Positions 8,901 to 55,937 are shown, numbered from the stretch's first letter. The stretch is DNA of 62,283 nt from Vicinamibacteria bacterium (GCA_031371345.1 JANMJM010000070.1:1-62283), one strand, 5' to 3'. Notes: generated by a model not told the origin, from the sequence alone. Translations and numbers: made by a program.

Positions 8901-8904
8901 AAAA

Positions 8905-13414: not shown

Positions 13415-13419
13415 AGACT

Positions 13420-31617: not shown

Positions 31618-32889
31618 TCAATGTCTATTCCCCACGGCCCATAGCCAACCCGCGGTTCTGATGAATATCTGGCCATCCGAGATCGCCGGTGAGCTGAGCG
31701 TGTAGTCGTCGAAATTATTCTCGGCGAGCACCTCGAACTTCGGCCCGGCCCGCACCACAATCGTTACGCCGTCTTCATTCGTGATGTAGAGCTTGCCGTC
31801 GCCGAGCGCGAACGATCCGCTGTAGGTGCTCGAGCGGAGGCGCTGCCGGCCGTAAATTTCCTTTCCAGTCTTCGCGTCGAGGCACCACATGATGCCGCGG
31901 TCATTGACAACGTAGAGATACGTGCCGTCGGTGACCGGGGTTGGGACATCGGGTCCGTTGTTGAACGACCACAACAGGTGAGACGAGGTGATATCGCCGC
32001 GTCCGCCGGCCCTCAACGCCAGCATCGGCCGCTCGCGGCTTGGCGCATAGATGATGTCGCCGTGCACGAAGGGGGACGCGACAATCCGGTATGAGCCGTC
32101 GTTCGAAGGATTCAGCCCGTTGGCGCGCCAGAGTTCTTTACCCGTCGAGAGATCGTGGCCAGTCACAACGTCGCCGCCTGTAATGACCAACTCGGTAGCG
32201 TTCCCGTAGCGGAGCAACGCGGGCGTCGTATACGAGTCCGGTGATTCAGACTGCGCGCTTGTCGGCCGCTCCACGCGCCAAATCGTGCGTCCGTTCGCCT
32301 TGCTGATGCGCAGCACATAGGACGGCGCGTCGGTTCTCATCCCGTGCAGGACCTGCACGTATAGCGAGTCCTCGTGCAGCAGTGGAGACGAACCATAGCC
32401 CCAGTTCAATCCGAAACGGCCGTAATCTTTCTGAATGTCGCGCGTCCAGAGTTCCTTGCCAGTGAAGTCGAAGCTTTTAAGGATGCCGGTTCCCGTCATC
32501 ACCCACACCTGGTTGCCGTCGGTGACTGGCGACGGAGACGACATGTTCTGCTTCTGCTCGCGGTGATCGCCGCCGCTCAGGTACTGCTTCCACAGGGGAA
32601 CGCCTTTGACGCGTTCTATACACCAGAGATGCAGGCTGCCCTTCTCGGCCACGTTCAGGAAAATACGATCACCCCACACGATGGGTGTCGAACCCGACCA
32701 TTCGGGAAGCGCAAGCTTCCAGGCGATGTTCTCGGTCGCCGACCATTTGACGGGCAGATTCGTTTCGCCACTGACACCGTTCTGCGTGGGTCCGCGCCAC
32801 TGCGGCCAGTTCTCCGCGCGCACGACACTGAGCATGGCGCAGAGCGCCATGACAATCGCCAGCGGCGTGTAAGTGTGACTGCGTGACAT
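31618..32889 (-). CDS. Secreted PQQ-like/BamB-like beta-propeller repeat protein
   Basis: Signal ...[44 protein letters not shown], and C-terminal [11 protein letters not shown]...[14 protein letters not shown]. Confidence 0.85.
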
Positions 32890-32927: not shown

Positions 32928-34235
<1,308 letters not shown>

Positions 34236-40677: not shown

Positions 40678-41955
40678 ATGTCACCCAGGCAATTCTGCAT
40701 CTCAGCTCTCGCTGGTCTGTGCCTGAATCTCACCACTTTGCCGGAGGCGTCGGCGCAGAACTGGCCGCAGTTTCGGGGGCCGGGCAGCCAGGGGATCTCG
40801 GTCGAGACCGGCCTGCCCGTGCAGTGGAGCGCCACGTCGAATGTGATCTGGAAGACAACGCTCCCTGGACCAGGCCATTCCTCGCCAATCGTGTGGGGCG
40901 ATCGGATCTTTCTCACCGCGTTTCGTTCCGAGCGCATGTCGAACGCGTACGCGGCGCGCTATCTATTATCGGCTCGCGGGCAGCTTGTGGTACTCGCGCT
41001 CGACAAATCTTCTGGAAAAATTCTGTGGGAACGCGCCGTCAAGGCTTCGAGCATCGAAGCGCTCCATCCGACAAACAGCCCGGCCTCGCCAACGCCAGTG
41101 ACCGACGGTCGTTACGTGTATGTGTATTTCGGATCGGCCGGACTCGTGGCGTTCGACTTCAACGGAACGGTCGTGTGGGAAAAACGGCTGGGCCCGTTCC
41201 CCAGCGATTGGGGCAGCGCCAGCTCGCCCGTGCTCTACGGCAGCACCTTATTGTTGAACGTCGACACTGATGGAGATGACTTTCTGCTGGCGGTCGACAA
41301 AACCACCGGCACGACGATCTGGCAGACGCCCCGCGGCCATGTGACCCGATCGTGGTCGACGCCGATCATCTGGAACGCGAACGGCCGCGACGAGATCGTC
41401 GTCAGTGGAAGCCAGCGCGTGAAAGGATACGACCCGGTCGGCGGAAAAGAGCTCTGGACCGTTGACGGCCTCACCGAATGGGTCGCGCCAACCCCAGTCA
41501 CGGCGCACGGTTTGTTGTTTGTGGCATCGAACGGCCCCGGCGGGAACATCATCATGGCCATTCGCCCGGGCGGCAGCGGCAATGTCACGCGCAGTCACGT
41601 CGCGTGGCGGTACGAGCGTGGTGCGCCCTACACGCCATCGCCAGTGGTTGTCGGCGATTATTTATTCGCCGTGAGAAGCGGCGGCCTGCTCACATGTCTG
41701 AACGCGAAGACAGGCGTCGAGGTGTGGCAGCATCGTCTGCCGGCGCGCGGCGACTATTACGCCAGCCTGCTCGCGGGCGACGGAAAGATTTACGCGCTCA
41801 GCGAGGATGGCGAGACCACGGTGATCGCCGCCAAGCCGGTGTACCAGCTGTTGAGCGTGAACGACATGGCCGAGCGGTCGATGGCCACTCCGGCAGTGTC
41901 TGGTGGACGACTTTTCATCCGCACCGACAGCGCACTGTACTCAATAGGAAAGTAG
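40678..41955 (+). CDS. Secreted PQQ-like/BamB-like beta-propeller repeat protein
   Basis: Signal ...[46 protein letters not shown], and C-terminal PVYQLLSVNDM...ATPAVSGGRLFIRT. Confidence 0.85.
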   Translation: MSPRQFCISALAGLCLNLTTLPEASAQNWPQFRGPGSQGISVETGLPVQWSATSNVIWKTTLPGPGHSSPIVWGDRIFLTAFRSERMSNAYAARYLLSARGQLVVLALDKSSGKILWERAVKASSIEALHPTNSPASPTPVTDGRYVYVYFGSAGLVAFDFNGTVVWEKRLGPFPSDWGSASSPVLYGSTLLLNVDTDGDDFLLAVDKTTGTTIWQTPRGHVTRSWSTPIIWNANGRDEIVVSGSQRVKGYDPVGGKELWTVDGLTEWVAPTPVTAHGLLFVASNGPGGNIIMAIRPGGSGNVTRSHVAWRYERGAPYTPSPVVVGDYLFAVRSGGLLTCLNAKTGVEVWQHRLPARGDYYASLLAGDGKIYALSEDGETTVIAAKPVYQLLSVNDMAERSMATPAVSGGRLFIRTDSALYSIGK

Positions 41956-42055: not shown

Positions 42056-43297
42056 TCAGTTCAGCGTCCAGAGTGCGAGCGTGTCGATGTCGCGCACGAA
42101 GATGCGGTTGCCAGAAATCGCGGGCGCCGGCCACGTCGCGCTGTCGGCGACCGTGTAAGTCTTAAGCGGCTCGAATCCGCCTGGCGTGCTGCGCGCCACC
42201 ATCAACTGGGCGTCATCCTTCAGCACGAACAGTAGATTTCCGGACCGCACGATGGCCGCGTTGCCAGCCTGGCGCGGCGGCGACATCCACAGCGTCTTCC
42301 CGGACTTCGCATCGGCCCAGAAAAACTGCCCGCTGTTGAGCGGCGACAACGAGAACACCGCGTCGCCAACGAGCACCGGATTGCTGAACGACATCTGCAC
42401 TTCCGGATTTTCCCACGCCACGTCGGCCACCCATTTGTTGTCACGCTTTGCAATCGTGTAGGCGGTCAGCGGCTTGCCTTGCCCCGACACGATCAACGTC
42501 CGCCCCTGATACAGGAGCGGCGTAATCGAGTTGGTGGTCGATCGCGCCTCGAACGGCATGCTCCAGAGCAGCTGGCCAGTGGCCGCATCGACCCCAACCA
42601 GGTTCTTCTGCGAGAACGTGATCACCTGCCGCGTGCCATCGACGTCGATGATGATTGGCGAGCCATACCCGGGACCGTCGCCCTTCCAGCTCCATTTCTC
42701 GGCGCCGGTCGCGGGATCGAACGCCGTCAGGGCACCGTCGTTGTTGCCTCCGACATGAATGATCATCAAGCCGCGATCGACAATCGGCGACTGGGCCGTG
42801 TGGAACGTCTGCGGAACCACAGGCTTTGGCTTCTGCCACAACTGTTTGCCCGTCGCGGCGTCAAAAGCCGTGACGATGCCGCTCATGCCCATGGTGAAGA
42901 TTCTGCCGTCGGCAAACGCCGGCGTGGATTTTGGCCCAGGGCCATGGCGCGAGGTTGAGTTATTCATCATGAACGGCGCGGCATACGGCGATTCCCATAT
43001 GACTTTGCCGCTGGCAGGATCGATCGCGCGCAACACTTCATTCTCGTTCTGTCGCGAGAACACATACACACGGTTCCCGACCACAAGTGGCGTCGCGTAC
43101 CCAGTACCGACGGGAATCTTCCATCGCTGGGTCAGCGCGTCGGGCCAGCTCTTCGGCTCGGTGAACGACGTCAGCACGCCATCTCTACTAGGACCACGCC
43201 ACTGCGGCCAGTCCGGTCCAGCATTCTGTCCCGTTGCCACAGCCGACAAAGCGGCGAAAAGGACGATCCCGACAAACGAAGTACGTCGCAGTCTCAT
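42056..43297 (-). CDS. Secreted PQQ-like/BamB-like beta-propeller repeat protein
   Basis: Signal MRLRRTSFVGIVLFAALSAVATG and PDWPQWRGPSRDG, with blades AIDPASGKVIWES, AFDAATGKQLWQK, AFDPATGAEKWSW and GVDAATGQLLWSM. Confidence 0.85.
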   Translation of the reverse strand: MRLRRTSFVGIVLFAALSAVATGQNAGPDWPQWRGPSRDGVLTSFTEPKSWPDALTQRWKIPVGTGYATPLVVGNRVYVFSRQNENEVLRAIDPASGKVIWESPYAAPFMMNNSTSRHGPGPKSTPAFADGRIFTMGMSGIVTAFDAATGKQLWQKPKPVVPQTFHTAQSPIVDRGLMIIHVGGNNDGALTAFDPATGAEKWSWKGDGPGYGSPIIIDVDGTRQVITFSQKNLVGVDAATGQLLWSMPFEARSTTNSITPLLYQGRTLIVSGQGKPLTAYTIAKRDNKWVADVAWENPEVQMSFSNPVLVGDAVFSLSPLNSGQFFWADAKSGKTLWMSPPRQAGNAAIVRSGNLLFVLKDDAQLMVARSTPGGFEPLKTYTVADSATWPAPAISGNRIFVRDIDTLALWTLN

Positions 43298-43310
43298 GGT
43301 GTCCTCATCA

Positions 43311-46300
43311 TCATTCGGTTCGGAGCGCCTGCAGCAACGGCGAACGAAGCGCCGCCGCCGTTGCGCCGATCGAAGCCATCAAACCCGTTATCAGCACGCC
43401 GAGAAGAAGCAGTCCAAGCGTCGGCCCGGGCAATCGTCCACCACGATCCATGAGCGTCGGTGCAATCGCCAGGAGCGCGCAAAACGTTCCGGCAGCCAGT
43501 CCGCATACGAGGAGCAGAATATTCTCGGCCACGACCATCGCAAAGAAATCCGCCTGCCGATATCCGAGCGCGCGAAGGAGCGCAAGCTCTCGACGCCGTT
43601 CGAGCACGTTCCGCAGCAGAACCGCGCCAAGGCCGAGTGTGCCGAGCAGCAACCCGAGGCCGCCGAGCATCTGAAAAGTGAGGAGGTAAGTATATTCAAC
43701 GCGGTGGAATCCCGCGAGACGTTCCGATGTGGAGGCAGCATCTACCCCGAAGTCGGGCATTCTCGACTCGAAGATCCCGGTGACGTCCGCCGCTCGTTCC
43801 GGCGGCACATCCACCAGGAAGAATCGATAGCCCTCCCATTCGGGAAACGTGCGCACGAACGGCGATTCCGCCATCAGGAGCTCGCCTTGAAAAATACTGT
43901 CCGACAACGCGCCGACCAGCCGCAGCCTCACCGGCCGCTCGGATGAACCTGGAAGCAAGAGATCGTCGCCAAGCTTCATGTGAAGGACGTAGGTCATCGA
44001 GTTGGCGTCGGTGATCACGGGAATGGCGCCGTCGGGAAACTCACGGTTCAGAAGCCGCCAGGGATTCGCTGTTTCTTCGGGCGTGGCAGCCATCGAGCTA
44101 TGAAACGCGAATCGGCCCGCGTTCACGAAATCGGGCGACGCAGCAAGAATGCGCGGGTTTTTCGGCTGATACAAGTTCAGACAACTCGTGTCGTCGCCGG
44201 GACGGACGCGAAAGCGATCGACGCGCACGCCCGCCAACTCGCCCTCGGTCGGAAGATTCATCGCCTCGCGCCCGGCTGCGCTGTTGAGGTCGTGAACGAT
44301 GGGAAGCAGCGACTCGACAAGTAGCGGGTAACCGCCGGTTCCCGACTGTCGATCGCGCAACGCGTCGCCGGCGTCGCGCTTGAACGCCTCGACTGCCACA
44401 ATCACAAACGTCGCAAAGGCGATCAGTGCGATGCAAAGGACACTGCGCGCAGGACGGAAAGTGGCATTGCGAAATCCTAGTTGCCAGACCGGCCATCTCC
44501 CGTGCCCATGAAGCGTTCGGCGATGGCCGCTTCGCAGCCAGGCTGACGACAAACATAACATCGCGACGAGCGCCGATGTACCCGCGCCGAAGAATCCGGC
44601 TACTCGGCCAATCCATCCCGTGGTCGCTCCGAAAAGAAGCATGACAGCCAGGAGTCCGAAGGCGGCCGCCGACATTGCACGTGCACGGCCGCTGAGCCCG
44701 ACACGCGCCACGTTCCGTGCTCCGACGGCGCCGGCTAAGAGGTTGCGGCTGGACAATTCGGCAACCGAGCGCAGCGACCACCAGATGCAAGCGACCGAGA
44801 CGGCAATGCCGCCGGCGGCTCCGGCCGCAAGCGACGCCGGATCGATATGGAGTGTGAGCGCGGTCGTACCCACCGCATCAACCCACCAGGTGCGCAATCC
44901 GAACATAATGACCGCGCCATACGCCACCGCTCCGGCCATTCCCACAAGGCCGCCTGCCAACGAGAGCACGATCCCCTCAACGGTAAACAATCTGCGAATG
45001 GTGACGGGATCGAAGCCCAGTGCCTGAAGCAGCCCGACTTCACGCAAACGCTGCTCGATGCCGAGCTTGAAGAAAAGCGCAGCGAGCAGAACGGCAGACA
45101 CCACGAGGAACATGCTGAAGTATGTGAAGTACTCGCTGAAGTCGGTCGCCCCGGTCGATGCGGCGAGGCTCTGCGCACGCACGTCCTGCACCGAGAATCC
45201 AGCGGCCGCTGGATCGAGCTCTGCCCTGAACGCGCGTCCGTACTGATCCAACGCCGCCGCAAGAGATGTTCCGTCGGACGGCCGGATGCGCAGGGCCGTC
45301 AGCGATCCGTAGCGGGATCGCCACAGTCGCTGCCCCATCGAGATCGGGATGAACGCTTTCGGTGTGGCGCGATAGCGTTTCCAGTAATCCTCATCAGCGG
45401 GCCGAACGCGCCGCAAGTCGATCGGGAACGGTGGATCCCAGTCGGACAGTCGATCGGAATCGGTGATGATGCCCGGATATTCCGGAACGAGATCGCGGTC
45501 CGCCGCGGGCCCTTCGATGGGAACAATCGCCGCGACGCGGAACTCGGCGCTCCGCGTCGACAAACGGCCCTCGGTCTCCCACACGTAGTAGTCGATCGAT
45601 ACCGGATCGCCCACTCGAACACTCAGCTCGTCTGCAGCCCACTGGTTCAAGACGATCGAGCTCGGGGCTGTGGGCGAGGCAAGGAGTCCCGCTGCCTTCA
45701 AATCAAGAGCGGTGATCACGGAATACGGAACCTCACGATTGCCTGAGCGGATAGTGTTTGCCAGATATGTCAGCGTCGGCAGCGTCGCCATCCCCAGCCG
45801 TCCGGCGGTGTTCTGCGCCGTCGCCACAAGATTGTCGCTGAGCACGGTGCTGCTGCTGTCGAGCGCGAGGCTGTGCCATTGCTCGAGCGCGCGAAGTCTC
45901 AACCCTAAATCGTCGAGGCGTGCGGTTTCTCGGACGGTGCGTTCGAGCTCCGCGCGATTCGTGTCGTCGTCGCCCGCCCCCACCGCGGCCCGCGCGTCGA
46001 TGAGAATCGTGTTCACCCTGTCCGGCTGCTGCAAAACCGCCTGCAAGCGACGCAAGGGGACGAAGATGGCGCGGATCGATCCCTGGCGCGGGCTGAGAGA
46101 AAATTCGCCGAGATCGTCGGCCCGCAGAACCTGGCGAGCCGTCAGCCGGACCGTTCGACCGACGTCTTCCTTCCGGCCGTGCAGCGATTCGGTGGGAATC
46201 GCCGACGCGCTTTCCAGGCGAAGCAGCACCGACTCGCCCGGCGTTGTCTCGATCTCACGGGCCAGCCCTTGGCTCAGGAACGCGTCATTGCCGCCAGGGC

Positions 46301-46688
46301 CCGCAATCGCTCCGACGCGGTGGAATTTCCAGAAACGATCATCGACTGCATACACCTGTACACGCGAGGCGCGCCGGCCGCCGGTCTGATCGGTCACGAA
46401 GCCTTCGAGCGCGATTATTGGAACGGCCGAAACGAACCGGTCGGTGAATCGGCCGTGCGTGGCAATCTCGCTCGCCAGCTGTTCGCGGAAGAAGCCGCTC
46501 GATACGACGACGTGATCGGTTTCGCCCAGCCGCTGCACCACCAGATCGCGCAAGCTCGCCCGGACGGACACGCCGACGGTAAGCGCCCCGGCCAGCACTG
46601 CGACCGCAATCGCCACGCCGGCAATGACGGCGAGATTCGTCCGCCAGTAATGCGTCAGGCTGCGGCGAAGAAGCATGGTGGCGCGCAT
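43311..46688 (-). CDS. MacB/FtsX-type ABC transporter permease, duplicated (two FtsX domains), 1125 aa
   Basis: Two FtsX cores: EQRLREVGLLQALGFDPVTIRRLFTVEGIVLSLAGGLVG and ERRRELALLRALGYRQADFFAMVVAENILLLVCGLAAG. Each is preceded by a long, presumably periplasmic, hydrophilic region. Confidence 0.85.
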   Translation of the reverse strand: MRATMLLRRSLTHYWRTNLAVIAGVAIAVAVLAGALTVGVSVRASLRDLVVQRLGETDHVVVSSGFFREQLASEIATHGRFTDRFVSAVPIIALEGFVTDQTGGRRASRVQVYAVDDRFWKFHRVGAIAGPGGNDAFLSQGLAREIETTPGESVLLRLESASAIPTESLHGRKEDVGRTVRLTARQVLRADDLGEFSLSPRQGSIRAIFVPLRRLQAVLQQPDRVNTILIDARAAVGAGDDDTNRAELERTVRETARLDDLGLRLRALEQWHSLALDSSSTVLSDNLVATAQNTAGRLGMATLPTLTYLANTIRSGNREVPYSVITALDLKAAGLLASPTAPSSIVLNQWAADELSVRVGDPVSIDYYVWETEGRLSTRSAEFRVAAIVPIEGPAADRDLVPEYPGIITDSDRLSDWDPPFPIDLRRVRPADEDYWKRYRATPKAFIPISMGQRLWRSRYGSLTALRIRPSDGTSLAAALDQYGRAFRAELDPAAAGFSVQDVRAQSLAASTGATDFSEYFTYFSMFLVVSAVLLAALFFKLGIEQRLREVGLLQALGFDPVTIRRLFTVEGIVLSLAGGLVGMAGAVAYGAVIMFGLRTWWVDAVGTTALTLHIDPASLAAGAAGGIAVSVACIWWSLRSVAELSSRNLLAGAVGARNVARVGLSGRARAMSAAAFGLLAVMLLFGATTGWIGRVAGFFGAGTSALVAMLCLSSAWLRSGHRRTLHGHGRWPVWQLGFRNATFRPARSVLCIALIAFATFVIVAVEAFKRDAGDALRDRQSGTGGYPLLVESLLPIVHDLNSAAGREAMNLPTEGELAGVRVDRFRVRPGDDTSCLNLYQPKNPRILAASPDFVNAGRFAFHSSMAATPEETANPWRLLNREFPDGAIPVITDANSMTYVLHMKLGDDLLLPGSSERPVRLRLVGALSDSIFQGELLMAESPFVRTFPEWEGYRFFLVDVPPERAADVTGIFESRMPDFGVDAASTSERLAGFHRVEYTYLLTFQMLGGLGLLLGTLGLGAVLLRNVLERRRELALLRALGYRQADFFAMVVAENILLLVCGLAAGTFCALLAIAPTLMDRGGRLPGPTLGLLLLGVLITGLMASIGATAAALRSPLLQALRTE

Positions 46689-46695
46689 GGTCAGA

Positions 46696-47364
46696 TCACG
46701 AAAGCTGACGCAGCCGGCGATCGGTCAGTTCGAAACGAAGCGGGAACCGAGCGGCCATATCCGGACTGTGAGTGACGACAATCAGGATGGCCTTCTGCTG
46801 TTGCTGCAGATTCAGCAGCAGCGACGCCACGCCGTGGGCAGAGGCGCGATCGAGATTGCCGGTCGGCTCGTCGCACAGAATCAGCCGCGGACGCCGGACC
46901 AGGGCGCGCGCCAGCGCGACTCGCTGCTTCTCGCCGCCCGACAACTGAGCCGGAACGTGGTCAATGCGCTCAGTCAGGCCGACCTGATCGATCAGCGACC
47001 GCGCGTGAGCTGCCGCATCTGGATCTAAAGGACCGACAAGGGTGGGAACGAGCACGTTCTCGAACACGGTGCACTGCGGGAGCAGACAGTGATCCTGGAA
47101 AACGAATCCGATCTCCTTATTGCGGAACGCCGCGAGCGTCTTCGGCGCGAGCTCGAATGGATTCTGGCCTTCGAGGCGCACCGTACCGGTTGTCGGCGGC
47201 TCGAGCGCGCCCAAAATGTACAGCAGCGTACTCTTCCCGCTGCCCGAAGGTCCCATGACGGCGGCGGCATCGCCGGAAGAAAATGATAAGGAGATATCGG
47301 TCAGGACCTCGACGTGTCCCTGCGGAGCGGGATAGGTCTTTCCTACGCTGTTGACGATCAGCAC
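46696..47364 (-). CDS. MacB/LolD-type ABC transporter ATP-binding protein
   Basis: [41 protein letters not shown] start overlapping the upstream stop. Confidence 0.9.
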
Positions 47365-48644
47365 ATCGAGCTCTCGTAAACCTCGAGCATTCGTTCTGCG
47401 GAGCGAGCGATGCTGTAATGCCTCCGCACACCGTCGAATCCATGAGCGCCGAGCTCGGCGCGACGGGCCGGATCGTTCCAGAGGTTGTAAATCCCGTCGG
47501 CGAGGCGACCGCTGTTATCCGCCTCGACGAGCACGCCTCCGGACGTCTTCGCGATCATTTCCGGGAATGCTCCATGGTTCGGCTGAACCACCGGGACGCC
47601 GCACGCCATCGCCTCGAGGAGAAACAAGCCCTTCGGCTCGACGTAAACCGTCGGCACGGAGAACACGTCGAGGTTCCGCAGGAACCGAATCTTCTGCTCA
47701 CGGTCCAGCAGCCCGCGATAGTGAAACTCGTTGCCAAGACCTGCGGCCTCCAGGCGCCGCCGAGCCTCGCGAAGGTAGCCCTGTTTATCTGACGCCATGT
47801 ACCCGGCAACTTCGAGCTGCGCGCGCTCGACACCCGGTCTTTGTCGGAATCGCACGTATGCCTCGCACAGCGCGTGAAGGCCTTTCTCCGGCGCGATCCT
47901 CGCCAGGTAGCCAACTGTAAACGGCCTGTCGGACGAGACGATTCTTTGCGCGAACCCTTCGAGATTGATCCCGAGCGGCACGACGTCTATCTTGTCGCGA
48001 GGGATGGAGAGGTAGGTGGACATGAACGTCGCGTAGTACTCGCTCACGGCGGTGAACCGATCGACGAACGCCGCGTTCTGTCGAATCAGCTCGATCGACG
48101 TGCGGCGATGGGCGTCCGGGAGACCGTCGAGAAACAGATCTTCGCCTTGCAGCGTGCAGTGCACTGGCCGCTTCAATTCGCGCTTGAGCGGTTTGGCGAG
48201 GCTGGCCAGCAGGGCATTCGGCAGCTGAATGACGTCGGGGGGAGGCTCGCTCGTGAGCCATTGCAGCAGCTTGCAGAACTCCTTTCGCTGAAAGCCGTCC
48301 TCGCCCTTGAGCGTCGACACCGTCAGCTCGCCAAGCGAGCGCGGGTCCGTTGAGAACGATCCGGACGTGGCCGCTTTAATCAGCCACGACGAGTCCAGCA
48401 GCTTGTCGAGCAGCGCAGGAGTGCGCCGGAAAAGACCCGCATGCTGTTGCAGGTAGACGTTGATGCCGCCGAAGAACACGCGCGGCTCGCTGACATTCGG
48501 CTCGTCGGTGAGCGTGGGCGTGTAAAGAGGAACCAGCAGCACGTCATGGCCGCGCGCCTTCAGCTCCGCAGCCAATGCGTTGTCCCGCAGACAGCTTCCG
48601 CAGTACATGCCCGCCGCACCCGCCGTGACAAAGAGGATGTTCAC
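47358..48644 (-). CDS. GT-B fold glycosyltransferase (GT4-like) with N-terminal CxxC-containing variant motif
   Basis: The GTG at 48644 overlaps the upstream TGA (GTGA). N-terminus VNILFVTAGAAGMYCGSCLRDNALAAELKARGHDV. C-terminal EPKGLFLLEAMACGVPVV is the typical GT1/GT4 E-x7-E region. The Arg-rich extension to 48821 was rejected. Confidence 0.8.
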   Translation of the reverse strand: MNILFVTAGAAGMYCGSCLRDNALAAELKARGHDVLLVPLYTPTLTDEPNVSEPRVFFGGINVYLQQHAGLFRRTPALLDKLLDSSWLIKAATSGSFSTDPRSLGELTVSTLKGEDGFQRKEFCKLLQWLTSEPPPDVIQLPNALLASLAKPLKRELKRPVHCTLQGEDLFLDGLPDAHRRTSIELIRQNAAFVDRFTAVSEYYATFMSTYLSIPRDKIDVVPLGINLEGFAQRIVSSDRPFTVGYLARIAPEKGLHALCEAYVRFRQRPGVERAQLEVAGYMASDKQGYLREARRRLEAAGLGNEFHYRGLLDREQKIRFLRNLDVFSVPTVYVEPKGLFLLEAMACGVPVVQPNHGAFPEMIAKTSGGVLVEADNSGRLADGIYNLWNDPARRAELGAHGFDGVRRHYSIARSAERMLEVYESSMC

Positions 48645-50068
48645 ATGCTGCCGGCGCTCTGCAACGCGCGCGGGCGATACAGGAAGTCGACGATATTGCC
48701 CTCGTGCGGCTGCAGCCAATTGAGCCGGATGGTCGGAATCGGCCCCAGGTTCAGGCGATCGACATGGGTTGCGTCGAGCAGCGCGCGCTGCAGCTCGGGT
48801 TTCCCGGTAATCGCCGAACACACGAGCGTGGGCCCGATGGCGTCGAGCATCTTCGTTTCAGGACACTCGACAACCGTGACGAAGGGAAACATGTATTCCT
48901 TGGCGGCGATCGCTGCGTCCGGCGTCGCGCAATGAACGACGGTCGGCAGCAGGTATTCTGCGCGGCCCTTTTTCACCACACGCGAGCCATCGCGATACTT
49001 CGCCGTGACGTCGGTCACGCCAGGCGCAGTCAAATCCGCATCGATCGAGTGGGAGATGGCGTCGGCCATTCCCGGCACCGTGAACGCCGCCAGGCTCGCC
49101 TTCGGATCATCCGGGGGCAGCGCTTCGACGGCCGCGAGGCGTTCGCCAAGCGCAGCGGCGATTTCTCGGCTGTGGCGGCTGACCCAGATTCCGGAGCAAT
49201 TGATGCAGCCTCGCCCGCTGTTCAGAAACACGCTGTCGACCATTACGTCGAGGTAGCGTTCCCAGTCGTCGACGCAATCGTCCCCAAACAGAATCTTCGA
49301 AAATCCCGGACCATGAACCTGCACCCGCGGGTTCCCTTTGTACCGTTCGACGGTCGGCGTGCCGCCAAAGATCAAGCTTCGGCCGCACGCGGCAACCACG
49401 GCGGCGCCTACCTCAGCTTCTCCGGGATAGATCGAGATCGCTTCGCGTGGGATACCTGCCTGAAAAAACGCCTCGGCGACACGGTACGGCGTCCAGGGTT
49501 CTTGGGGCCCTGGTTTGAGCACCAGCCCAATCTGCAACGGAATGATGGGCAGCCACAATGTGTGCACGCCCGGCGAGTTCGACGGGAGGACGAGCCCCAG
49601 CACCGGGCTTTGCGCCTGATAACTGATCGGGACGCCGTTTTCTTCGCCGTATCCGCTGCTCAACACATTCAGGTCCAGGCCGCGCGTGAGCGCTTTCAGG
49701 ATGTTGCCCATTTCGCCAAGCACGAACTGATTCTTCTTCATGTTGCCGCGGCACAGCGCTTCAGGAAGCCCCGTGCTCGCCGACTGCTGCTTCACGAAAT
49801 CGTCGGGCGTCTGGCTGCCGTCACCAATCGCGAGTGTGGCATTCATGTAGAGATCGCCGGCGATTTTCATTCGATGGATGAGCTCGTCGATGGGAATTTT
49901 GCGGAGCGCCTCGCGAGCACCCGCAGCCTTCCGCATGTCGCGCTGAATGAGGCCGGCGTTGGCCCGGCTGACTTTCGCAATGGGCTCGCCGGTGAGGAAG
50001 TGCACCACCTCATCGGTGTCCACGCTCGAGTACGGAGTGCCCCAACGGAGGGCGGGGATGTTGATCAT
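48641..50068 (-). CDS. Aldehyde dehydrogenase-superfamily protein (possibly LuxC-like acyl-CoA/acyl-adenylate reductase)
   Basis: ALDH-like core LVLPSNSPGVHTLW...LKPGPQEPWT...FGGTPTV... and candidate catalytic Cys FLNSGRGCINCSG. Preferred start MINIPALRW at 50068. The upstream ORF extension translates the heptamer repeat. Confidence 0.7.
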   Translation of the reverse strand: MINIPALRWGTPYSSVDTDEVVHFLTGEPIAKVSRANAGLIQRDMRKAAGAREALRKIPIDELIHRMKIAGDLYMNATLAIGDGSQTPDDFVKQQSASTGLPEALCRGNMKKNQFVLGEMGNILKALTRGLDLNVLSSGYGEENGVPISYQAQSPVLGLVLPSNSPGVHTLWLPIIPLQIGLVLKPGPQEPWTPYRVAEAFFQAGIPREAISIYPGEAEVGAAVVAACGRSLIFGGTPTVERYKGNPRVQVHGPGFSKILFGDDCVDDWERYLDVMVDSVFLNSGRGCINCSGIWVSRHSREIAAALGERLAAVEALPPDDPKASLAAFTVPGMADAISHSIDADLTAPGVTDVTAKYRDGSRVVKKGRAEYLLPTVVHCATPDAAIAAKEYMFPFVTVVECPETKMLDAIGPTLVCSAITGKPELQRALLDATHVDRLNLGPIPTIRLNWLQPHEGNIVDFLYRPRALQSAGSM

Positions 50069-50153
50069 GGTTGTTAGTTGTTGGTTGTTGGTTCTGCCGC
50101 TTGTCCTTCGCGTGTTTGGTCTCGTCGTTCGAACTAACAACTAACAACTAATA
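50069..50153. repeat. Inverted pair of heptamer tandem repeats forming an intercistronic hairpin
   Basis: GGTTGTTA GTTGTTG GTTGTTG GTTCTG (50069..50096), a ~34-nt loop, then GAACTAAC AACTAAC AACTAAT (50131..50153). The second arm contains the TAG stop at 50148..50150. No Shine-Dalgarno motif is visible before the ATG at 50068. Confidence 0.8.
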
Positions 50154-51260
50154 GACGCCCACCGTCGTCGTTGCCGCGAAGCCGCGAAACGGGCGCACAC
50201 CGCTGACGCCGTCCCATGGATATTTGGCGCAGGGGCGCTCGCGTTCCCCTTCATCACGCTCGAGGAAGCCAGGGACGAAAAACTCTTTCGTCAGCGTCGT
50301 CAATTTCACCCGGCCGGTCTTTCCGTACTCCACAATCTTCAGCGGATTATCGAGGTCGACCACTTCGATGACCGCGCGTGGCTGCGGCGCATGATAGGTA
50401 ATCTTGTAGTTGTTCTCGGGACCCGTCGGAGCGCTGGCGGCCAGTCCCATCAACGTGTTGCCGTACGTAGGTGTCATGTACGCGCCGTCGAGGAGCTCTT
50501 CGTGAGCGAACCGGTTCCACTGCGGCGTAAATTCGGTGCCGCCAGAGAAAATTCCCGTGATGCCGGCTTGTCGAATGGTCGTGCCCTCCGACTCCAGTCT
50601 GAGCGCGAGCGCTTCCAACAGTTTGGGGGTCGTGAACATGCAGCGAATATCGTGACCGGCCTGCAGAATCGACACGGCTTGATCGATCACGTGCGCCTTG
50701 TAGGCTTCGAGCTGATCCATCGAGCCTTTCTTGATCAGCTTGATCACCCACCTGGGATCGAGATCGACACAGAACGAGATGCCGCCGCGATACTGCGCGA
50801 GGTGCTCGACCGATAGCCGGAGTCGGCGTGGTCCGGACGGCCCAAGCATCAGCCAGTTCGATCCGAGTGGAAAATATTCGTCGGGCAGCGTGCGGCTGAA
50901 CAGCTCGTAATCGGTCCGGAAATCTTCGAACGCGACACGCGTCTTGGGAATGCCGGTCGTGCCGCCTGTCTCGAATACGTAGACCGGTTTGCCGGCGCAC
51001 CCTTTCGGAATCCAGCGCTGCACGGGGCCGCCACGCAACCATTCGTCTTCGAAGGCCGGAAAACGCGAAAGATCCCGGTAACCATGGATCGCCTGTCGGG
51101 GATCCCACCCGAGTTTGCCGGCGAACTCCAACCAGAATGGACACCCTGTGGCGGGATCGAAATGCCAGGCCACCGTCTCGCGCACGTGGGCGTCCAGCGC
51201 CTCCTGCGCCTGGCGAGCGCGAACCGCAACGTCGCTTGGGGTCTCGGTCTCCGACTTCAT
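50148..51260 (-). CDS. LuxE/PaaK-like adenylate-forming enzyme (370 aa)
   Basis: Start MKSETETPS at 51260. P-loop-like VFETGGTTGIPKTRV. The size and layout resemble the short PaaK/LuxE acyl-AMP-forming family. The ORF extension to 51650 was rejected (Arg-rich, and it overlaps the divergent DUF3311 gene). Confidence 0.65.
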   Translation of the reverse strand: MKSETETPSDVAVRARQAQEALDAHVRETVAWHFDPATGCPFWLEFAGKLGWDPRQAIHGYRDLSRFPAFEDEWLRGGPVQRWIPKGCAGKPVYVFETGGTTGIPKTRVAFEDFRTDYELFSRTLPDEYFPLGSNWLMLGPSGPRRLRLSVEHLAQYRGGISFCVDLDPRWVIKLIKKGSMDQLEAYKAHVIDQAVSILQAGHDIRCMFTTPKLLEALALRLESEGTTIRQAGITGIFSGGTEFTPQWNRFAHEELLDGAYMTPTYGNTLMGLAASAPTGPENNYKITYHAPQPRAVIEVVDLDNPLKIVEYGKTGRVKLTTLTKEFFVPGFLERDEGERERPCAKYPWDGVSGVRPFRGFAATTTVGVY

Positions 51261-51293
51261 AGCCGCGTAGTATATTCTGACCCAACTCGAGAC

Positions 51294-51494
51294 ATGAGGC
51301 TTTGGTCCGCAGTCGCCGCCGTGGCTCTGCTCTACGCGCTCCACCAGGATTTCTGGTATTGGCGTGATGCGCGTCCGCTGGTCTTCGGCATCCTTCCGAT
51401 TGGCCTCTTCTACCACGCGGCGTACACCGTCGCCGCTTCCGGCGTGCTCTGGCTGCTCGTCAGGACGGCATCGCCCACGCATCTCGACGAATGA
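51294..51494 (+). CDS. DUF3311-like small membrane protein (symporter-associated)
   Basis: [56 protein letters not shown] forms two TM helices. The stop overlaps the symporter start (ATGA), the arrangement typical of DUF3311 with a sodium:solute symporter. Confidence 0.7.
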
Positions 51495-53119
51495 TTCCAA
51501 CCCTCGTCGTCTTTGCCTACCTCGCGGTCGTTCTCTACATCGGCGTCTTCGCGTTCCGCCTGTCGCGACGGAAGAATGATGCGGAAGACTTTTTTCTCGC
51601 CGGCCGGTCGCTGGGACCCACGGTGTTTCTGTTGTCGCTGTTCGGCACAAACATGACCGCCTTCTCCATCCTTGGGGCCTCGGGTCACGCGTTCGCCAAC
51701 GGCATCGTCACCTTCGGCCTGATGGCCTCGTCCTCGGCGCTGATCATTCCGGTGGGCATCTTCGTGATCGGCACACGTCTGTGGGCGCTCGGAAAACGCC
51801 ACGGCTTCATGACACCCGTGCAGATGTTCCGCGATCGCTGGGAATGCCGGCACATCAGCACGGTCATTTTCGCAGTCCAAGCCGTGCTGCTCGTTCCCTA
51901 CATCATCATTGCCGTCATGGGCGGCGGCACGACGCTGCAGGCCATCTCCAGCGGGTTCATTCCGTATTGGCTGGGCGGCGGCATCGTGTCGGCGGTCGTC
52001 ATGAGCTATGTGTTCCTCGGCGGGATGCGTGGCACTGCCTGGGTGAACGCATTGCAGACGACGCTGTTTCTTATGTTCGGTACGATTGCGGTCGTCGTGA
52101 TCGGAAACGGGATGGGCGGATTTCACGACGCGATGGAGGCGATGCTGGCATCGCCGGCGACGGCGCCGCTGCTGACGCGCGAGCGCGTCTCGCCGCTCTA
52201 CTTTTTCAGTTACACGTTCATCCCGCTCTCTTCGATTGCTTTTCCGCACATCTCCATCTTCTGCTTGACCGCGCGCAGTGGTACCTACTTCCGAAAAACC
52301 GTGGTGCTGTATCCGATATGCATGCTCTTCATCTGGCTACCGTCGGTCTTCCTCGGCGTCGTCGCCAATCAGGCCAGAGCGCTACCCGCCATTGAATCGA
52401 AGCTCGAAGCTCGTGCACAGCTCGCGGCGCCAAACGCGACGATGTCGCCGGACGAACGCGTACGGCTGCGCGCCCAGGCAGGCGGCGATGATGTGATTCT
52501 GCGACTGGTCGACGGGTACGCGCCTTTGTGGCTGGCGTCGCTGCTCGGCGCCGCGGTCATGGCCGCCGTCATGGCAAGCGACTCGCAGATTCTCGCCCTG
52601 TCAACCATGTTCACCGAGGACATCTTCACCTTCTATCAAGGGACGGCGAGATTCGGGCAGGCAGTGCAGGTGATGACCGGACGCGTATTCGTCGTGCTGG
52701 TGACCGTCGTGGCCTACGCAATCGCGTTGCGTCTTCCGCAATCGATTTTCGACGTCGCGACGCAGTACGCGTTCGCGGGATACGCGGCCCTCGCGCCGCT
52801 GCTGGTGGCTGCGCTCTTTTGGAGAAACAGCACGAAATGGGGCGCGCTCGCGAGCACGCTTTGGACGGCGGCGGCTGTGACGGCCGTCGCCGCCTGTCAG
52901 ACGCTGATTCCAGCTCCGCCGCCCGGCTCGGAAGTTCTTGTCTGGTCCCTGAACGACGTGCGTGTCATCACTCGCGGCGCCGCCGGCACGCTGGTGCTCG
53001 GCTTGTTACCGGTCGTTCCGATGACGATTGTCTCGGCGCTCCTCATGTTCGTCGTGTCGATGGCAACCCTGTCCGCGTCGAAGCCCGGCGCCGTGACCCT
53101 CGCGAGGTATTTTCGATGA
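51491..53119 (+). CDS. Sodium:solute symporter (SSS) family transporter
   Basis: A 542-aa protein with about 13 TM segments and the SSS-type N-terminus [10 protein letters not shown]. Confidence 0.85.
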
Positions 53120-54480
53120 CGAGTCGACTGACCCCCGTGCAATGGTTGATCTGCGCAATTGCCGCGATCGGCTTTGCATTTGATATCTACGAAATTCTGA
53201 TGCTGCCGTTGATAGTACGTCCCGCGCTGCTCGAGCTCACCGGCGCTGCGCCAGGTTCGCCGGCATTTCAGATGTGGGTAGGGCGGCTCTTCTACCTCCC
53301 GGCGTTCGCCGGCGGCATCTTCGGATTGATCGGCGGCTATTTGACCGATCGCCTCGGGCGGCGGCGGGTGCTCACCTACAGCATTCTGATCTACGCCGTG
53401 TCGGCATTTGCATCGGGGTTCTCGACGTCGATCCAAATGCTCCTCGTCCTACGGTGTTTCGTCTTCATCGGCGTGTGCGTCGAGTTCGTCGCCGCCACTG
53501 CCTGGCTGGCCGAGTTGTTCACCGAGCCGGCACGGCGCGAGAAAGTTCTCGGATACACGCAGGCGTTCTCGTCGATTGGCGGCGTGCTGGTCGCCACGGT
53601 GAACGGTGTATGTGTGGCGTACGCGCATAACCTGCCGGCCGTCGCCGGGTTCGGGCTTGCCATCGCGGACCCGCATGCGCCCTGGCGCTACACGCTGATG
53701 TCGGGCGTGCTGCCCGCGATTCCGTTGATCCTTATTCGGCCGCTGCTGCCAGAGTCGCCGGCATGGCAGCAGAAAAAGGCCGCGGGAACGTTGCGGCGTC
53801 CGAGCATTGCCGCGCTCTTTTCTCCAGAGTTCCGGCGGACGACGATCGTCACGACCGTCATGTTTGCGATGGCGTACGGCGCAGCCTTCGGCGCGATTCA
53901 GCAGATTCAGCAGATTGTGCCGGGCCTGCCCGAGGTGCGCAGCATGACGCAGGGACTGACGCCTCCTCGCGCGGGACTCGTCACGCAGGAAGTGGCGGCG
54001 AACGTGACGAAGGTGCAGGAGATCGGCGGGCTCGCGGGCCGCATCGCGCTGGCGTATCTGGCGGTCATTGTCGTGAGTCGCCGGAAGCTGATCAGGCTGT
54101 TCCAGATTCCCGGGTTAATCGTGATGCCGTTGACGTTCGCGGTCGCCGCAACCACCAGCTTGAGCTGGCTGTATCCGGCGATGTTCTTCGCGGGATTTTT
54201 TACCGTTGCGCAATTCAGTTTCTGGGGAAACTACCTGCCGCGCGTGTATCCCACGTACCTAAGAGGAACGGGTGAAAGCTTCGCCGCCAACATCGGCGGG
54301 CGCCTGATCGGTACGTCGTTCGCCTGGCTGACGGCCACGCTCGCCGTCACGCCGGATCGCGGGTACGCTCCGACGAAGGTGGCGCTCGTCGCCGCGGTCG
54401 TGGGATTCTCGTGCTATCTCGTCGGTTTCATCGCGAGCTTCTGGCTGCCGGAACCAAGTGTTGAAACGTTACCTGATTAG
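53116..54480 (+). CDS. MFS transporter
   Basis: The ATG at 53116 overlaps the symporter stop (ATGA). [14 protein letters not shown] loop motif and about 12 TM segments. The Arg-rich extension from 52528 was rejected. Confidence 0.85.
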
Positions 54481-54843
54481 GATTCTTATCGGCGCGCTTT
54501 TGATCGCGGGCGTCAGCACGCTCGGCGACTTCATTTGGGCCGGTCTGCATTTACGCCATCGACCGCTGTACGGTCTCACCCATGGAACGCTTCTTTTTTT
54601 GTGCATCGGAGTCTATCTGGGAGTACTCGCGAAGCAACCTTACTTAGGCGCGCTCGCTGGCGCCATCACGTCGTCGTGCGAGGCATCGCTGCCGCGATCG
54701 GATCTGGCATCGCCTTCTACTCAATTTCGGGGATCTGGCGGCCGTTCAATCCTGAAGGTTGGGATTACGCGATCCACTTTCTCAGTTGGACAGTTGCGTA
54801 TTTACCAGGTTTTTCGGCCCTGATGTTTGAGAATCCTGATTAA
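54458..54843 (+). CDS. Small ~4-TM membrane protein with an apparent -1 frame disruption near 54665-54680
   Basis: The frame from GTG 54458 gives [27 protein letters not shown]...LLFLCIGVYLGVLAKQPYLGALAGAI and then turns hydrophilic. The adjacent frame continues membrane-like, GIAAAIGSGIAFYSISGIW...YAIHFLSWTVAYLPGFSALMF, to the TAA at 54841..54843. Confidence 0.45.
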
Positions 54844-55937
54844 CCGAAGCAATACAGTCTTCCGTCGTGACTACCCACGACGACGCGGCCGGCGGCGATC
54901 GCAGGCGATGCGGTGATGGCCGCACCTGCGTCGAACTCCCACAGCTTTCCGCCTTTCAACAGATCGAGGACATAAAGACGGCCGTCGCTCGACCCCCCGA
55001 ACACCCGGGGGCCGGCGATCGCCGGCGACGACTCGACGCGGGCGTTGGTCATGAACGTCCAGCGGGCCTTTCCTGTCTTCGCATCGAGCGCGTGAATCAT
55101 CTTGTCGCGTCCGCCGAGGAAGACGGTGCCCTGGCTGACGGCTGCCGACGAATAAAACGGGAACCGCCGCTCTGGGTGGCGGTACTCCCAGAGCAGCTTG
55201 CGCGACTTGATGTCGATGCCGATGACTTCGCTTTCGAACGTACCGACGTACGCGGCGCCGCCGGTGATCGCGGACGATGCGCCCATGTAGGCGCCAATTG
55301 GCACGTTGATCACTTCCTTTCCGTCGGCGACGCGCACGCCGTGGAACCGCTCGTCGCATCCGGAGATATACGCGACACCGTCGGCAACCGCCGGCGTGGC
55401 GTGCACGTATCCGTCGAACTCGACTTTCCAGTCGACAGTGCCGCGCTCGACCGACAGTCCGTATAGGAACCGATCGTAGGACCCGATGAGCACGCGCGTG
55501 CCTACAACGACGGGTGAGGACCGAATCTCACCGGCTGTCTTGAACGTCCAGCGGGCCTTGCCGCTCTGAACGTCCACTGCGTGGAGCACTCCGGAAAGGT
55601 CGCCGATGTACACGACGCCGTCGGCCACGGCGGGAGACGACTCGCCGATCTCCGCGGTGCGATACCGCCAGCGCACAGCGCCTGATTGAAGGTCGAGCGC
55701 GACGAGCTCGCCCGCCGCGGAGCCCATAAACACCACTCCGTCAGCAATCGCGGCCGAGGATTCAATCGCGTCACCCGCATCAAATGTCCACATCACTTTG
55801 AGTGCGGATGGCACGATGGAGGAGGTGACGCCCGTCAGCTGCGGATTCCCTCGAAACTGTGGCCACGACGATTGCTGCGCGACGGGGGTTTCCGCAAGGC
55901 ACGCCAGCGCGACGAGCAATCCCATCAGAAGGCGCAT
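54840..55937 (-). CDS. Secreted PQQ-like/BamB-like beta-propeller repeat protein
   Basis: Signal MRLLMGLLVALACLAETPVA and SSWPQFRGNPQ, with blades ALDLQSGAVRWRY, AVDVQSGKARWTF, ALDAKTGKARWTF and VLDLLKGGKLWEF. The start overlaps the upstream alcohol dehydrogenase stop. Confidence 0.85.
   Translation of the reverse strand: MRLLMGLLVALACLAETPVAQQSSWPQFRGNPQLTGVTSSIVPSALKVMWTFDAGDAIESSAAIADGVVFMGSAAGELVALDLQSGAVRWRYRTAEIGESSPAVADGVVYIGDLSGVLHAVDVQSGKARWTFKTAGEIRSSPVVVGTRVLIGSYDRFLYGLSVERGTVDWKVEFDGYVHATPAVADGVAYISGCDERFHGVRVADGKEVINVPIGAYMGASSAITGGAAYVGTFESEVIGIDIKSRKLLWEYRHPERRFPFYSSAAVSQGTVFLGGRDKMIHALDAKTGKARWTFMTNARVESSPAIAGPRVFGGSSDGRLYVLDLLKGGKLWEFDAGAAITASPAIAAGRVVVGSHDGRLYCFG

Follow-up and report, generated by a model that had tools for sequence, protein, structure and literature searches.

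Do the six genes at positions 42056-51260 of this DNA encode one pathway and, if so, on what does it act? The stretch analysed (the window) comprises 62,283 nucleotides from a Vicinamibacteria bacterium (GCA_031371345.1, JANMJM010000070.1:1-62283), a soil acidobacterium, and has a G+C content of about 62% throughout. The genes, G1 to G6 in the direction of transcription, code for a putative adenylating enzyme, a reductase of the aldehyde dehydrogenase (ALDH) superfamily, a GT4 glycosyltransferase, an ABC ATPase, an FtsX-type permease and an exported beta-propeller (Table 1). A sequence-only reading of the DNA had proposed that a carboxylic acid is activated and reduced in the manner of LuxE/LuxC, glycosylated, and exported through a MacB-type pump to the propeller. 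Our analysis suggests a different version: the block would be the exporter-bearing half of a conserved small-molecule pathway, in which an aromatic acid is converted to the aldehyde, possibly on to the alcohol, then to a glycoside that is exported to the envelope. We consider the chances of this proposal to be about even.

The six co-directional open reading frames were found on the minus strand exactly where they had been placed, and the overlaps, gaps and hairpin spacer described between them were all borne out. Exact-sequence look-up in the public annotation of the contig returned identical proteins for G1 (370 amino acids, aa), G2 (475 aa), G3 (428 aa) and G5 (1125 aa). The four junctions from G2 to G6 read as translational coupling, which supports an operon structure. 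For the spacer between G1 and G2 a hairpin is predicted, with a folding energy of -24.8 kcal/mol (z = -3.4 relative to shuffled sequences; 0 of 200 shuffles folded equally well). It contains a 21-nt inverted repeat of 90% complementarity, and the arms are made of short tandem repeats, TTGTTAG units and their complement. Internal promoters and terminators had been named as possible signs of separate transcripts. Consensus scans, which are weak for Acidobacteria, detected 23 terminator-like sites over 19.5 kb (15.8 +/- 5 expected), none of them at a junction, and promoter-like sites inside the block were not in excess over background. An Rfam search for regulatory RNAs in the spacers had no match. 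Recent horizontal transfer of the block was rejected, as there was no compositional signal (GC3 0.72-0.81 for all genes); codon-position composition was even across the block and the neighbouring genes.

When G1 was compared with the PDB by phmmer, the closest solved structure was EhpF (3l2k/3hgu, E=1.2e-38), the alignment covering residues 10-359 of G1 and 9-354 of the EhpF chain. The P-loop ETGGTTGIPK quoted for G1 in the sequence-only reading is present, as is the motif FLNSGRGCINCSG quoted for G2. Pfam AMP-binding scored 25.6 bits, below its cutoff, AMP-binding_C was not matched, and NCBIfam gave weak F390-synthetase/PaaK-type matches; in the NCBIfam and Pfam scans G1 was not FAAL- or FadD-like. 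Homologues of G1 are 355-394 aa long. G1 is predicted to be a truncated enzyme of the ANL superfamily, devoid of the C-terminal (thioester-forming) domain.

G2 matched Pfam Aldedh with 73.6 bits (cutoff 23) and could be aligned from end to end, with 24% identity, to the EhpG-like ALDH from an ehp phenazine cluster (E=2e-31). In the family alignment Asn164 (oxyanion), Cys288 (catalytic) and Glu391 (NAD-ribose) were invariant, the first two being the equivalents of ALDH Asn169 and Cys302. The general base Glu268 of the ELGGK motif, however, was not kept. Alignment to 3b4w placed Lys/Ser at the Glu position, and an invariant GPG(F/R)(S/A)K replaces the motif in the family. Since the cysteine is kept and the hydrolytic glutamate is lost, G2 fits formation of an acyl-cysteine followed by reduction or acyl transfer, not hydrolysis.

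EhpF belongs to the D-alanylgriseoluteic acid (phenazine) pathway of Pantoea agglomerans (PDB 3HGU, 3HGV and 3L2K; Bera et al. 2010, Acta Cryst D66:664, cited in PMC3175449) and, like G1, is devoid of the C-terminal domain. The gene that comes after EhpF in phenazine clusters of the ehp type is ehpG, a member of the ALDH family (PMC11278526). By homology, G1 and G2 are an EhpF/EhpG-type pair, in which acid-to-aldehyde logic has a homologous precedent; direction and coupling of the G1/G2 reaction would likewise be those of EhpF/EhpG. Bera and co-workers reportedly proposed in 2010 that this chemistry leads from an aryl carboxylate to the aldehyde via an acyl-adenylate. LuxE and LuxC, in contrast, had no Pfam match at E<=10 in an hmmscan of G1 and G2 against Pfam-A, which returned AMP-binding for G1 and Aldedh for G2 plus noise, and membership in these families was ruled out. 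Thus the activate-then-reduce logic first suggested was retained through EhpF/EhpG and its LuxE/LuxC affinity was dropped.

G3 scored above the cutoffs of the Pfam models Glycos_transf_1 and Glyco_transf_4 (92.5, 75.4, 52.2 and 52.0 bits), has the EX7E motif in the form EPKGLFLLE, and its closest solved structures were PimB'/PimA. G4 has the Walker A, signature and Walker B motifs; its top NCBIfam model was LolD (230.6 bits, cutoff 307.75), and it scored 190 bits with YbbA and 181 bits with MacB (cutoff 966). In G5 two stretches matched FtsX (74.6 bits) and MacB_PCD scored 26.9 bits, just below the cutoff of 27. Hydropathy predicts about 10 transmembrane segments and periplasmic domains at ~47-518 and ~772-1001, and weak PDB matches were obtained with YtrF, a Spr0695-like permease and MacB. 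Judged by these matches, G4 and G5 together are a type VII ABC transporter (FtsX/MacB/LolCDE superfamily). Closer identities were rejected. The ATPase is separate, FtsX is double and G5 reached 17 bits with the MacB equivalog, which speaks against a MacAB-TolC pump; no HlyD/MacA-family gene was found among the scanned window genes. LolCDE equivalence was dismissed on the LolD score and on lolCE (25.5 bits vs 362), and the ADOP family on a score of 38 bits for G5 (cutoff 622); the architecture of G5 is YbbP/ADOP-like. The families first assigned (truncated ANL/PaaK-like, ALDH, GT4, MacB/LolD-type ATPase, FtsX and PQQ_2 propeller) broadly held, except that the permease is not MacB proper and has no MacA adaptor.

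Conservation of the block was examined in loci obtained from scans of species-representative genomes, which yielded 533 and 554 relatives of G1 and, after de-duplication, 139 unique loci (numbered with the prefix L). Locus genes were defined by conservation-weighted selection of open reading frames and checked against public gene calls. Presence was counted within 10 kb of G1-G2 in 73 acidobacterial and 15 planctomycete loci. G2 adjoined G1 in 88/88 loci with full flanks. The ABC gene was found in 70, the double FtsX gene (FtsX2) in 59 and the GT4 gene in 58 of the 73 acidobacterial loci. Because gene order is kept in 58-73 of these 73 related loci, the G1-G5 arrangement is not due to chance. 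The proposed six-gene unit was confirmed for G1-G5, which are syntenic across Vicinamibacterales, and failed for G6, an orthologue of which (at least 40% identity) occurs in 21 of the 73 loci. The G1 family itself is large, with more than 8000 metagenomic homologues and, at 50% clustering (E<=1e-30), about 300 representatives. Over the 139 loci, from Acidobacteriota and Planctomycetota, G1 is 72-91% identical. Between the phyla (against L069 and L086-L154) identity is 72-78%, approximately the same as within each phylum. The operon partners of G1 fall to 30-70% identity, and a plateau like that of G1 is unusual for an enzyme of secondary metabolism.

The functional unit is also larger than six genes, with a Fe-dependent alcohol dehydrogenase (Fe-ADH), an exported propeller (prop2), a HemN-like radical S-adenosylmethionine (SAM) enzyme, the chorismate-lyase-fold protein c12 and a 4HBT thioesterase linked in both phyla. 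In the public gene calls of a relative (L213/L214) the order is Fe-ADH, propeller, sodium:solute symporter (SSF) and DUF3311 (both oppositely oriented), G1, G2, GT4, ABC and FtsX (1126 aa), followed by radical SAM enzyme, a 196-aa protein, 4HBT thioesterase and PaaK-type ligase; this is the same operon without G6. The radical SAM gene follows FtsX2 or G6 in close relatives, and prop2 follows Fe-ADH in close relatives and in Planctomycetes. The planctomycete row is G1-G2-FeADH-prop2-HemN-like radical SAM enzyme, then GcvH-like and ferredoxin-like proteins, with Fe-ADH directly after G2 in 14 and the radical SAM gene present in 11 of the 15 loci. A planctomycete GT4 orthologue was used as query for further loci of this phylum. 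In these, GT4 (45-48% identical to G3) is followed by a 4HBT thioesterase, an ABC ATPase (55-58%) and a double FtsX permease (35-42%). Many Planctomycetes have a c12 homologue immediately upstream of GT4, and several loci have prop2 and the radical SAM gene some 8 kb upstream. One locus (L116/L158) combines G1-G2-FeADH-prop2-radical SAM-c12-GT4-ABC in one row, and L167, L180, L181 and L183 contain prop2-radical SAM and c12-GT4-thioesterase-ABC-FtsX2 within ~20 kb. This recurrence of one gene set in two phyla, with the order changed, is the chief argument for assigning the operon of the window to one larger functional system.

What is the acid? Four of the five annotated bacterial relatives of G1/G2 that were inspected lie among chorismate-utilising genes: phenazine genes (E. 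coli plasmid L157), DAHP synthase with aminodeoxychorismate synthase (PabB), isochorismatase with a PhzE-like anthranilate synthase, and DAHP synthase with isochorismate synthase. The fifth, a Streptomyces 'arylcarboxylate reductase', a name given by NCBI to some of the relatives, stands beside flavin adenine dinucleotide (FAD) monooxygenases, a 3-hydroxycinnamate-type hydroxylase and a type I polyketide synthase (PKS), with no adjacent ALDH. From these contexts the most likely substrate would be a chorismate-derived aromatic acid such as 4-hydroxybenzoate. The 4HBT thioesterase and PaaK-type ligase of the cluster point the same way, as does the neighbouring MFS transporter, which comes nearest to aromatic-acid symporters at a sub-threshold score. 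Of the two products suggested by the sequence-only reading, a glycoconjugate is better supported than a glycolipid because the family context points to aromatic, not fatty, acids.

A candidate source of the acid is c12, whose homologues are named 'chorismate-pyruvate lyase' by JGI. A sequence search of c12 against the PDB found nothing. Its AlphaFold2 model (pLDDT 92.5) was matched by Foldseek best to AF1396/DUF98 (TM-score 0.67-0.76), and compared with E. coli UbiC (chorismate lyase) the TM-score was 0.55-0.61. In the hhalign alignment with UbiC, Arg78 is aligned to the product-binding Arg76 and the PLGR motif is kept. The chorismate-lyase fold also occurs in UTRA ligand-binding domains. The model suggests that c12 has this fold, and lyase activity is a candidate role. 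Uptake of the acid is also possible, because a haloarchaeal plasmid carries SSF, G1 and G2 in a row.

Taken together, the pathway may be pictured as follows. An acid made by c12, or imported via the divergent SSF/MFS transporters, would be adenylated by G1. G2 would take the acyl group onto Cys288 and reduce it with NAD(P)H to the aldehyde, which Fe-ADH could carry on to the alcohol. The GT4 enzyme would glycosylate a hydroxyl group, and G4 with G5 would expel or extract the amphiphilic product at the periplasmic side of the inner membrane. Type VII ABC systems are known for extracting or expelling material that resides in the outer leaflet or the periplasm, not for carrying solutes of the cytoplasm; YbbAP-TesA, for example, withdraws hydrophobic compounds from the inner membrane (PMC12646458). 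The final product is therefore probably amphiphilic or membrane-associated.

A number of observations weigh against this pathway. A soluble glycoside would need another route, since no type VII ABC system is known to carry solutes from the cytoplasm through the bilayer. The activity of EhpF/EhpG is a structure-based proposal, and we know of no reconstitution. The Pfam search with c12 was without match, its hhalign alignment to UbiC was weak (E=0.045), and the SSF and Fe-ADH families would suit small aliphatic acids too. A distance of at most 10 kb from G1 was seen for Fe-ADH, prop2, the radical SAM gene and c12 in only 8-15 of the 73 acidobacterial loci, and for GT4 and the ABC genes in only 1-2 of the 15 planctomycete loci. 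One Vicinamibacterales lineage has G1-G2-ABC-FtsX2 and no GT4, and Kolteria and the haloarchaeal plasmid carry G1-G2 without GT4 or exporter.

These distributions bear on the possibility that there is no common product, G1-G2 (with SSF/MFS and Fe-ADH) being a stand-alone reducing module for assimilation or detoxification and GT4-ABC-FtsX2 an unrelated envelope module that by coincidence lies downstream in Vicinamibacterales. G1-G2 lacks GT4, ABC and FtsX2 within 10 kb in 13 of the 15 planctomycete loci and in Kolteria, the haloarchaeal plasmid has SSF-G1-G2 only, and planctomycete GT4-ABC-FtsX2 loci are mostly without G1-G2 within 10 kb. The occurrence of G1-G2 alone in Kolteria and on the plasmid indicates that the modules can work apart. 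The start and stop codons of G2/G3 and G3/G4 overlap, however, the ABC gene follows G1-G2 in 70 of the 73 acidobacterial loci, including the lineage without GT4, and the modules are rejoined in a different order in Planctomycetes (L116/L158; L167, L180, L181 and L183). We therefore think it unlikely that the two modules are unrelated.

A fatty acid could in principle take the place of the aromatic acid: after LuxE/LuxC-style reduction to the aldehyde or alcohol, glycosylation by GT4 would yield a glycolipid, which the type VII ABC transporter would then remove from the inner membrane, in resemblance to the HglT/DevBCA heterocyst glycolipid route. The acid-to-aldehyde chemistry would be identical, the solved structures nearest to GT4, PimA and PimB', are those of enzymes acting on lipids, and G4 scores highest with LolD. 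Type VII ABC transporters such as LolCDE and YbbAP-TesA handle lipidic cargo (PMC12646458). Against this stand the missing LuxE/LuxC matches, the dissimilarity of G1 to FAAL and FadD, the chorismate-derived contexts of four of the five inspected relatives, and the content of the cluster, in which no fatty-acid or PKS genes are found but those of c12 with its chorismate-lyase fold, the 4HBT thioesterase and the PaaK-type ligase. A fatty-acid substrate is thus decidedly doubtful.

The propeller to which the product had been thought to be delivered does not seem to be a component of the system. G6 meets only the generic PQQ_2 model; equivalog scores were 72.5 bits for BamB (cutoff 285) and 60 bits for PQQ_enz_alc_DH (cutoff 480). 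In the window, G5 is separated from the radical SAM gene by an insertion that consists of G6 and a paralogue of opposite orientation (40678..41955), and G6 is absent from the otherwise identical L213/L214 operon. Synteny rules out a dedicated periplasmic partner. Its presence in 21 of 73 loci, its absence from L213/L214 and the paralogues in the window, about eight in number, point to a lineage-specific local paralogue, and G6 would be a hitch-hiking member of the local propeller array. The PQQ_2/BamB-like paralogues lie, together with an NHL-repeat propeller, within 30 kb and mostly have signal peptides; G6 and prop2 show weak similarity to the 'acido-empty-quinoprotein' family. The pathway might also supply the PQQ-like propellers (prop2, G6 and the paralogues) with a small-molecule cofactor or ligand in the periplasm, as pyrroloquinoline quinone (PQQ) is made by a cytoplasmic radical-SAM pathway and used by periplasmic propeller enzymes. 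In favour of this are prop2, a conserved, exported cluster member in both phyla with the radical SAM enzyme and the exporter conserved alongside, the eight or so propellers of the window, and the weak 'acido-empty-quinoprotein' matches. Against it, the propellers are BamB-like proteins of ~370-440 aa and not quinoprotein dehydrogenases of ~600 aa, PQQ-dehydrogenase models score far below their cutoffs, neither a precursor peptide nor a PqqB/C/D-like gene is present, and paralogue arrays are common and need not be functionally linked. We regard this possibility as highly improbable.

The proposed aromatic pathway can be extended to a system of about ten genes in Vicinamibacteria and Planctomycetota, comprising the EhpF/EhpG-type reductase, Fe-ADH, propeller, HemN-like radical SAM enzyme, chorismate-lyase-fold protein, thioesterase, GT4 and type VII ABC transporter. 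It would make an undescribed glycosylated aromatic envelope compound, possibly a meroterpenoid in Planctomycetes, that might serve the co-encoded periplasmic propellers as ligand or cofactor, and the conservation of G1 would mark a core function. As a whole we regard this extension as improbable. If true, the near-EF-Tu level of G1 conservation (72-78% between phyla) would mark a core, not an accessory, function.

Table 1. Genes, junctions and linked features of the window (coordinates counted from its first nucleotide)
Feature	Coordinates	Strand	Basis or remark
G1, EhpF-type adenylating enzyme (ANL superfamily), 370 aa	51260..50148	-	EhpF homology, P-loop
G1/G2 junction	50069..50147	-	79-nt spacer forming hairpin
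G2, EhpG-type ALDH-superfamily reductase, 475 aa	50068..48641	-	Pfam Aldedh 73.6 bits
G2/G3 junction	48641..48644	-	GTGA start/stop overlap
G3, GT4 retaining glycosyltransferase, 428 aa	48644..47358	-	Pfam Glycos_transf_1 92.5 bits
G3/G4 junction	47358..47364	-	GTGCTGA 7-nt overlap
G4, LolD/MacB-class ABC ATPase, 222 aa	47364..46696	-	Pfam ABC_tran 120.9 bits
G4/G5 junction	46689..46695	-	7-nt gap
G5, fused double FtsX permease (type VII ABC), 1125 aa	46688..43311	-	two FtsX domains
G5/G6 junction	43298..43310	-	13-nt gap with GAGGA ribosome-binding site
G6, exported PQQ_2/BamB-like beta-propeller, 413 aa	43297..42056	-	PQQ_2 127 bits, N-terminal signal peptide
Fe-dependent alcohol dehydrogenase, 381 aa	57070..55925	-	Pfam Fe-ADH + ADH_Fe_C; candidate aldehyde-to-alcohol step
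prop2, exported beta-propeller (PF13570 ACSF4-type/PQQ_2), ~365 aa	55937..54840	-	PF13570 205 bits, cutoff 133
DUF3311 small subunit	51294..51494	+	call taken from relative L213
SSF sodium:solute symporter	51491..53119	+	Pfam SSF 126 bits
MFS transporter	~53128..54480	+	Pfam MFS_1/Sugar_tr
HemN-like (class C) radical SAM enzyme, 443 aa	40643..39312	-	Pfam Radical_SAM + HemN_C
c12, putative chorismate-lyase-fold protein, 181 aa	39311..38766	-	no gap after radical SAM stop
4HBT/YbgC-class hotdog thioesterase, 137 aa	38761..38348	-	Pfam 4HBT_2, 4HBT
Full-length PaaK-type aryl/acyl-CoA ligase, 429 aa	38344..37055	-	Pfam AMP-binding + AMP-binding_C_2
PQQ_2 propellers	26451..28451, 28455..29891, 31618..32889, 34247..35572, 35784..37058, 40678..41955, 42056..43297, 54840..55937		
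NHL-repeat propeller	30394..31527		

The linked genes of the window lie on both sides of the block. The start of prop2 overlaps the stop of Fe-ADH by 13 nt, and its ATG at 55937 is provided with a GGAGG ribosome-binding site. The genes of the radical SAM enzyme, c12, thioesterase and ligase are tightly packed. All NCBIfam matches of the radical SAM enzyme were sub-threshold (ChuW/HutW 174 bits, HemN 158 bits), and a class C methyltransferase is possible; the ligase matched NCBIfam PaaK with 198-212 bits, also sub-threshold. The best NCBIfam model of the MFS transporter was the aromatic acid/H+ symporter family (80 bits, sub-threshold). Its gene is divergent from G1 in 39 of the 73 loci, and relatives again show the order '<MFS <SSF >G1'. 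A flavin-dependent halogenase-like protein (32928..34235, minus strand; Trp_halogenase 106 bits and CmlS-type 212 bits, sub-threshold) is encoded amid the propeller genes that lie downstream of the operon from radical SAM enzyme to ligase; in L026 and L072 a homologue of it adjoins the same genes. A halogenated aromatic intermediate is conceivable.

Other neighbourhoods of G1-G2 were as follows. In the loci of the GT4-less lineage (L099, L114, L118, L129, L134-L137, L145, L150, L152 and L153) a pterin-4a-carbinolamine dehydratase-like gene is kept just upstream and a tricorn/S41-like protease of ~1100 aa is found downstream. Plasmid 2 of Halalkalicoccus jeotgali B3 (L156, 4511-8569) carries SSF, a G1 homologue (37% identity) and a G2 homologue (27% identity) in a row with an adjoining short-chain dehydrogenase/reductase (SDR); this haloarchaeal megaplasmid row extends the pair, with an importer, to Archaea. 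In Planctomycetes, genes inserted between the radical SAM gene and c12-GT4 (L180:5176-9197 and 11887-12813; homologues in 13-25 of 55 loci) code for a divergent class II terpene cyclase (DADDTP motif, DxDD), a prenyl-diphosphate synthase-DUF116 fusion and a 308-aa protein with a single alpha-alpha-toroid. These terpenoid genes suggest a meroterpenoid or prenylated aromatic version there. A hopanoid link was not adopted for the organism of the window, which is devoid of terpenoid genes here; the planctomycete cyclase, moreover, reached only 113 bits with the squalene-hopene cyclase model (cutoff 431).

Just 33 nt (51261..51293) separate the start of G1 from the divergent DUF3311-SSF-MFS genes. 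At this spacing two divergent promoters must overlap each other or coding regions. A TATACT hexamer is located 9 nt ahead of the G1 ATG, and the G1 mRNA may be nearly leaderless. Hairpins of the kind found between G1 and G2, intergenic and with arms of tandem 6-8 nt units and their complements, occur in the window also at 13416..13493 and 8852..8903. Relatives have them at the G1-G2 junction (L002, L003, L007, L009, L025, L029 and L031) and L007 also at 19569-19660. Lengths of 137-263 nt and folding energies of -95 to -133 kcal/mol are attained at the junction, many of the hairpins being much longer than here, and in some relatives the spacer is absent altogether. The unit varies by genome (GGTTCTG, GGTTCGT, GGTGCGT, CACGAAA, CCACTTT and others), with architecture and position constant. 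These repeat-built stem-loops look like a genome-wide class in Vicinamibacterales, and they may influence mRNA stability or the ratio in which G1 and G2 are expressed.

The soil metagenomes from which these sequences derive are rich in Vicinamibacterales and Planctomycetes, few cultured strains of which have been studied biochemically, and the cluster is strongly conserved in hundreds of species. If the proposed aromatic pathway is true, it would provide the first physiological context for a carrier-free EhpF/EhpG-type reductase outside phenazine antibiotics, a type of interest as a biocatalyst alternative to carboxylic acid reductases (CARs). The glycosylated aromatic product, whether placed in the envelope or exported, would be a candidate for a new class of metabolites, and type VII ABC transporters, which are unusual in their mechanism, would gain a new cargo.

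All components are members of known families. In agreement with the sequence-only reading, which knew of no characterised system of this composition, the combination was not found described: literature searches on arylcarboxylate reductases and two-component carboxylate reductases found nothing, and a putative carrier-free aryl-carboxylate reductase joined to GT4 and a double-FtsX exporter in a two-phylum gene set is, as far as found, undescribed and uncharacterised. G1/G2 is of the EhpF/EhpG kind, with the same two families, gene order and adjacency, the ANL enzyme without C-terminal domain, the cysteine kept and GPG in place of the Glu motif. It differs in its distance (~33-37% identity for G1, 24% for G2), in the extreme conservation of this clade (72-91% across two phyla), and in being coupled to GT4, type VII ABC transporter, Fe-ADH, radical SAM enzyme and chorismate-lyase-fold protein, with no phenazine genes. 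As in LuxE/LuxC, a separate protein for ATP-dependent activation and a Cys-dependent NADPH reductase of similar sizes would give an aldehyde; Pfam affinity to LuxE/LuxC and a LuxD are missing, and the context is aromatic, not that of fatty acids. With CARs the pair would share the net conversion of an aromatic or aliphatic acid, ATP and NADPH to aldehyde. CARs are ANL-peptidyl carrier protein-reductase fusions that need a phosphopantetheinyl transferase and have an SDR-type reductase, whereas the present pair has an ALDH-fold reductase and lacks a carrier protein.

On the export side, G4/G5 resembles LolCDE, MacAB-TolC, FtsEX and YbbAP-TesA (PMC12646458) in its LolD/MacB-class ATPase, FtsX-type domains and large periplasmic domains, and the permease has about 10 transmembrane segments as YbbP does. 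Unlike in these type VII systems, no MacA, TolC, LolA, EnvC or TesA partner gene is found in the operon, the periplasmic domains are larger (~470 and ~230 aa), and equivalog scores are below cutoff. For the proposed pathway as a whole, two comparisons can be made. Heterocyst glycolipids are made and exported by HglT and DevBCA-TolC, and mycobacterial phenolic glycolipids by a route with the chorismate lyase Rv2949c and DrrABC/MmpL7. Those routes use polyketide synthases and other glycosyltransferase and exporter families, and they have neither an EhpF/EhpG-type reductase nor a HemN-like radical SAM enzyme. The proposed pathway would share with them an alcohol or phenol aglycone, its glycosylation and ABC-dependent export to the envelope, and with the mycobacterial route also an aglycone derived from chorismate via a DUF98-type lyase.

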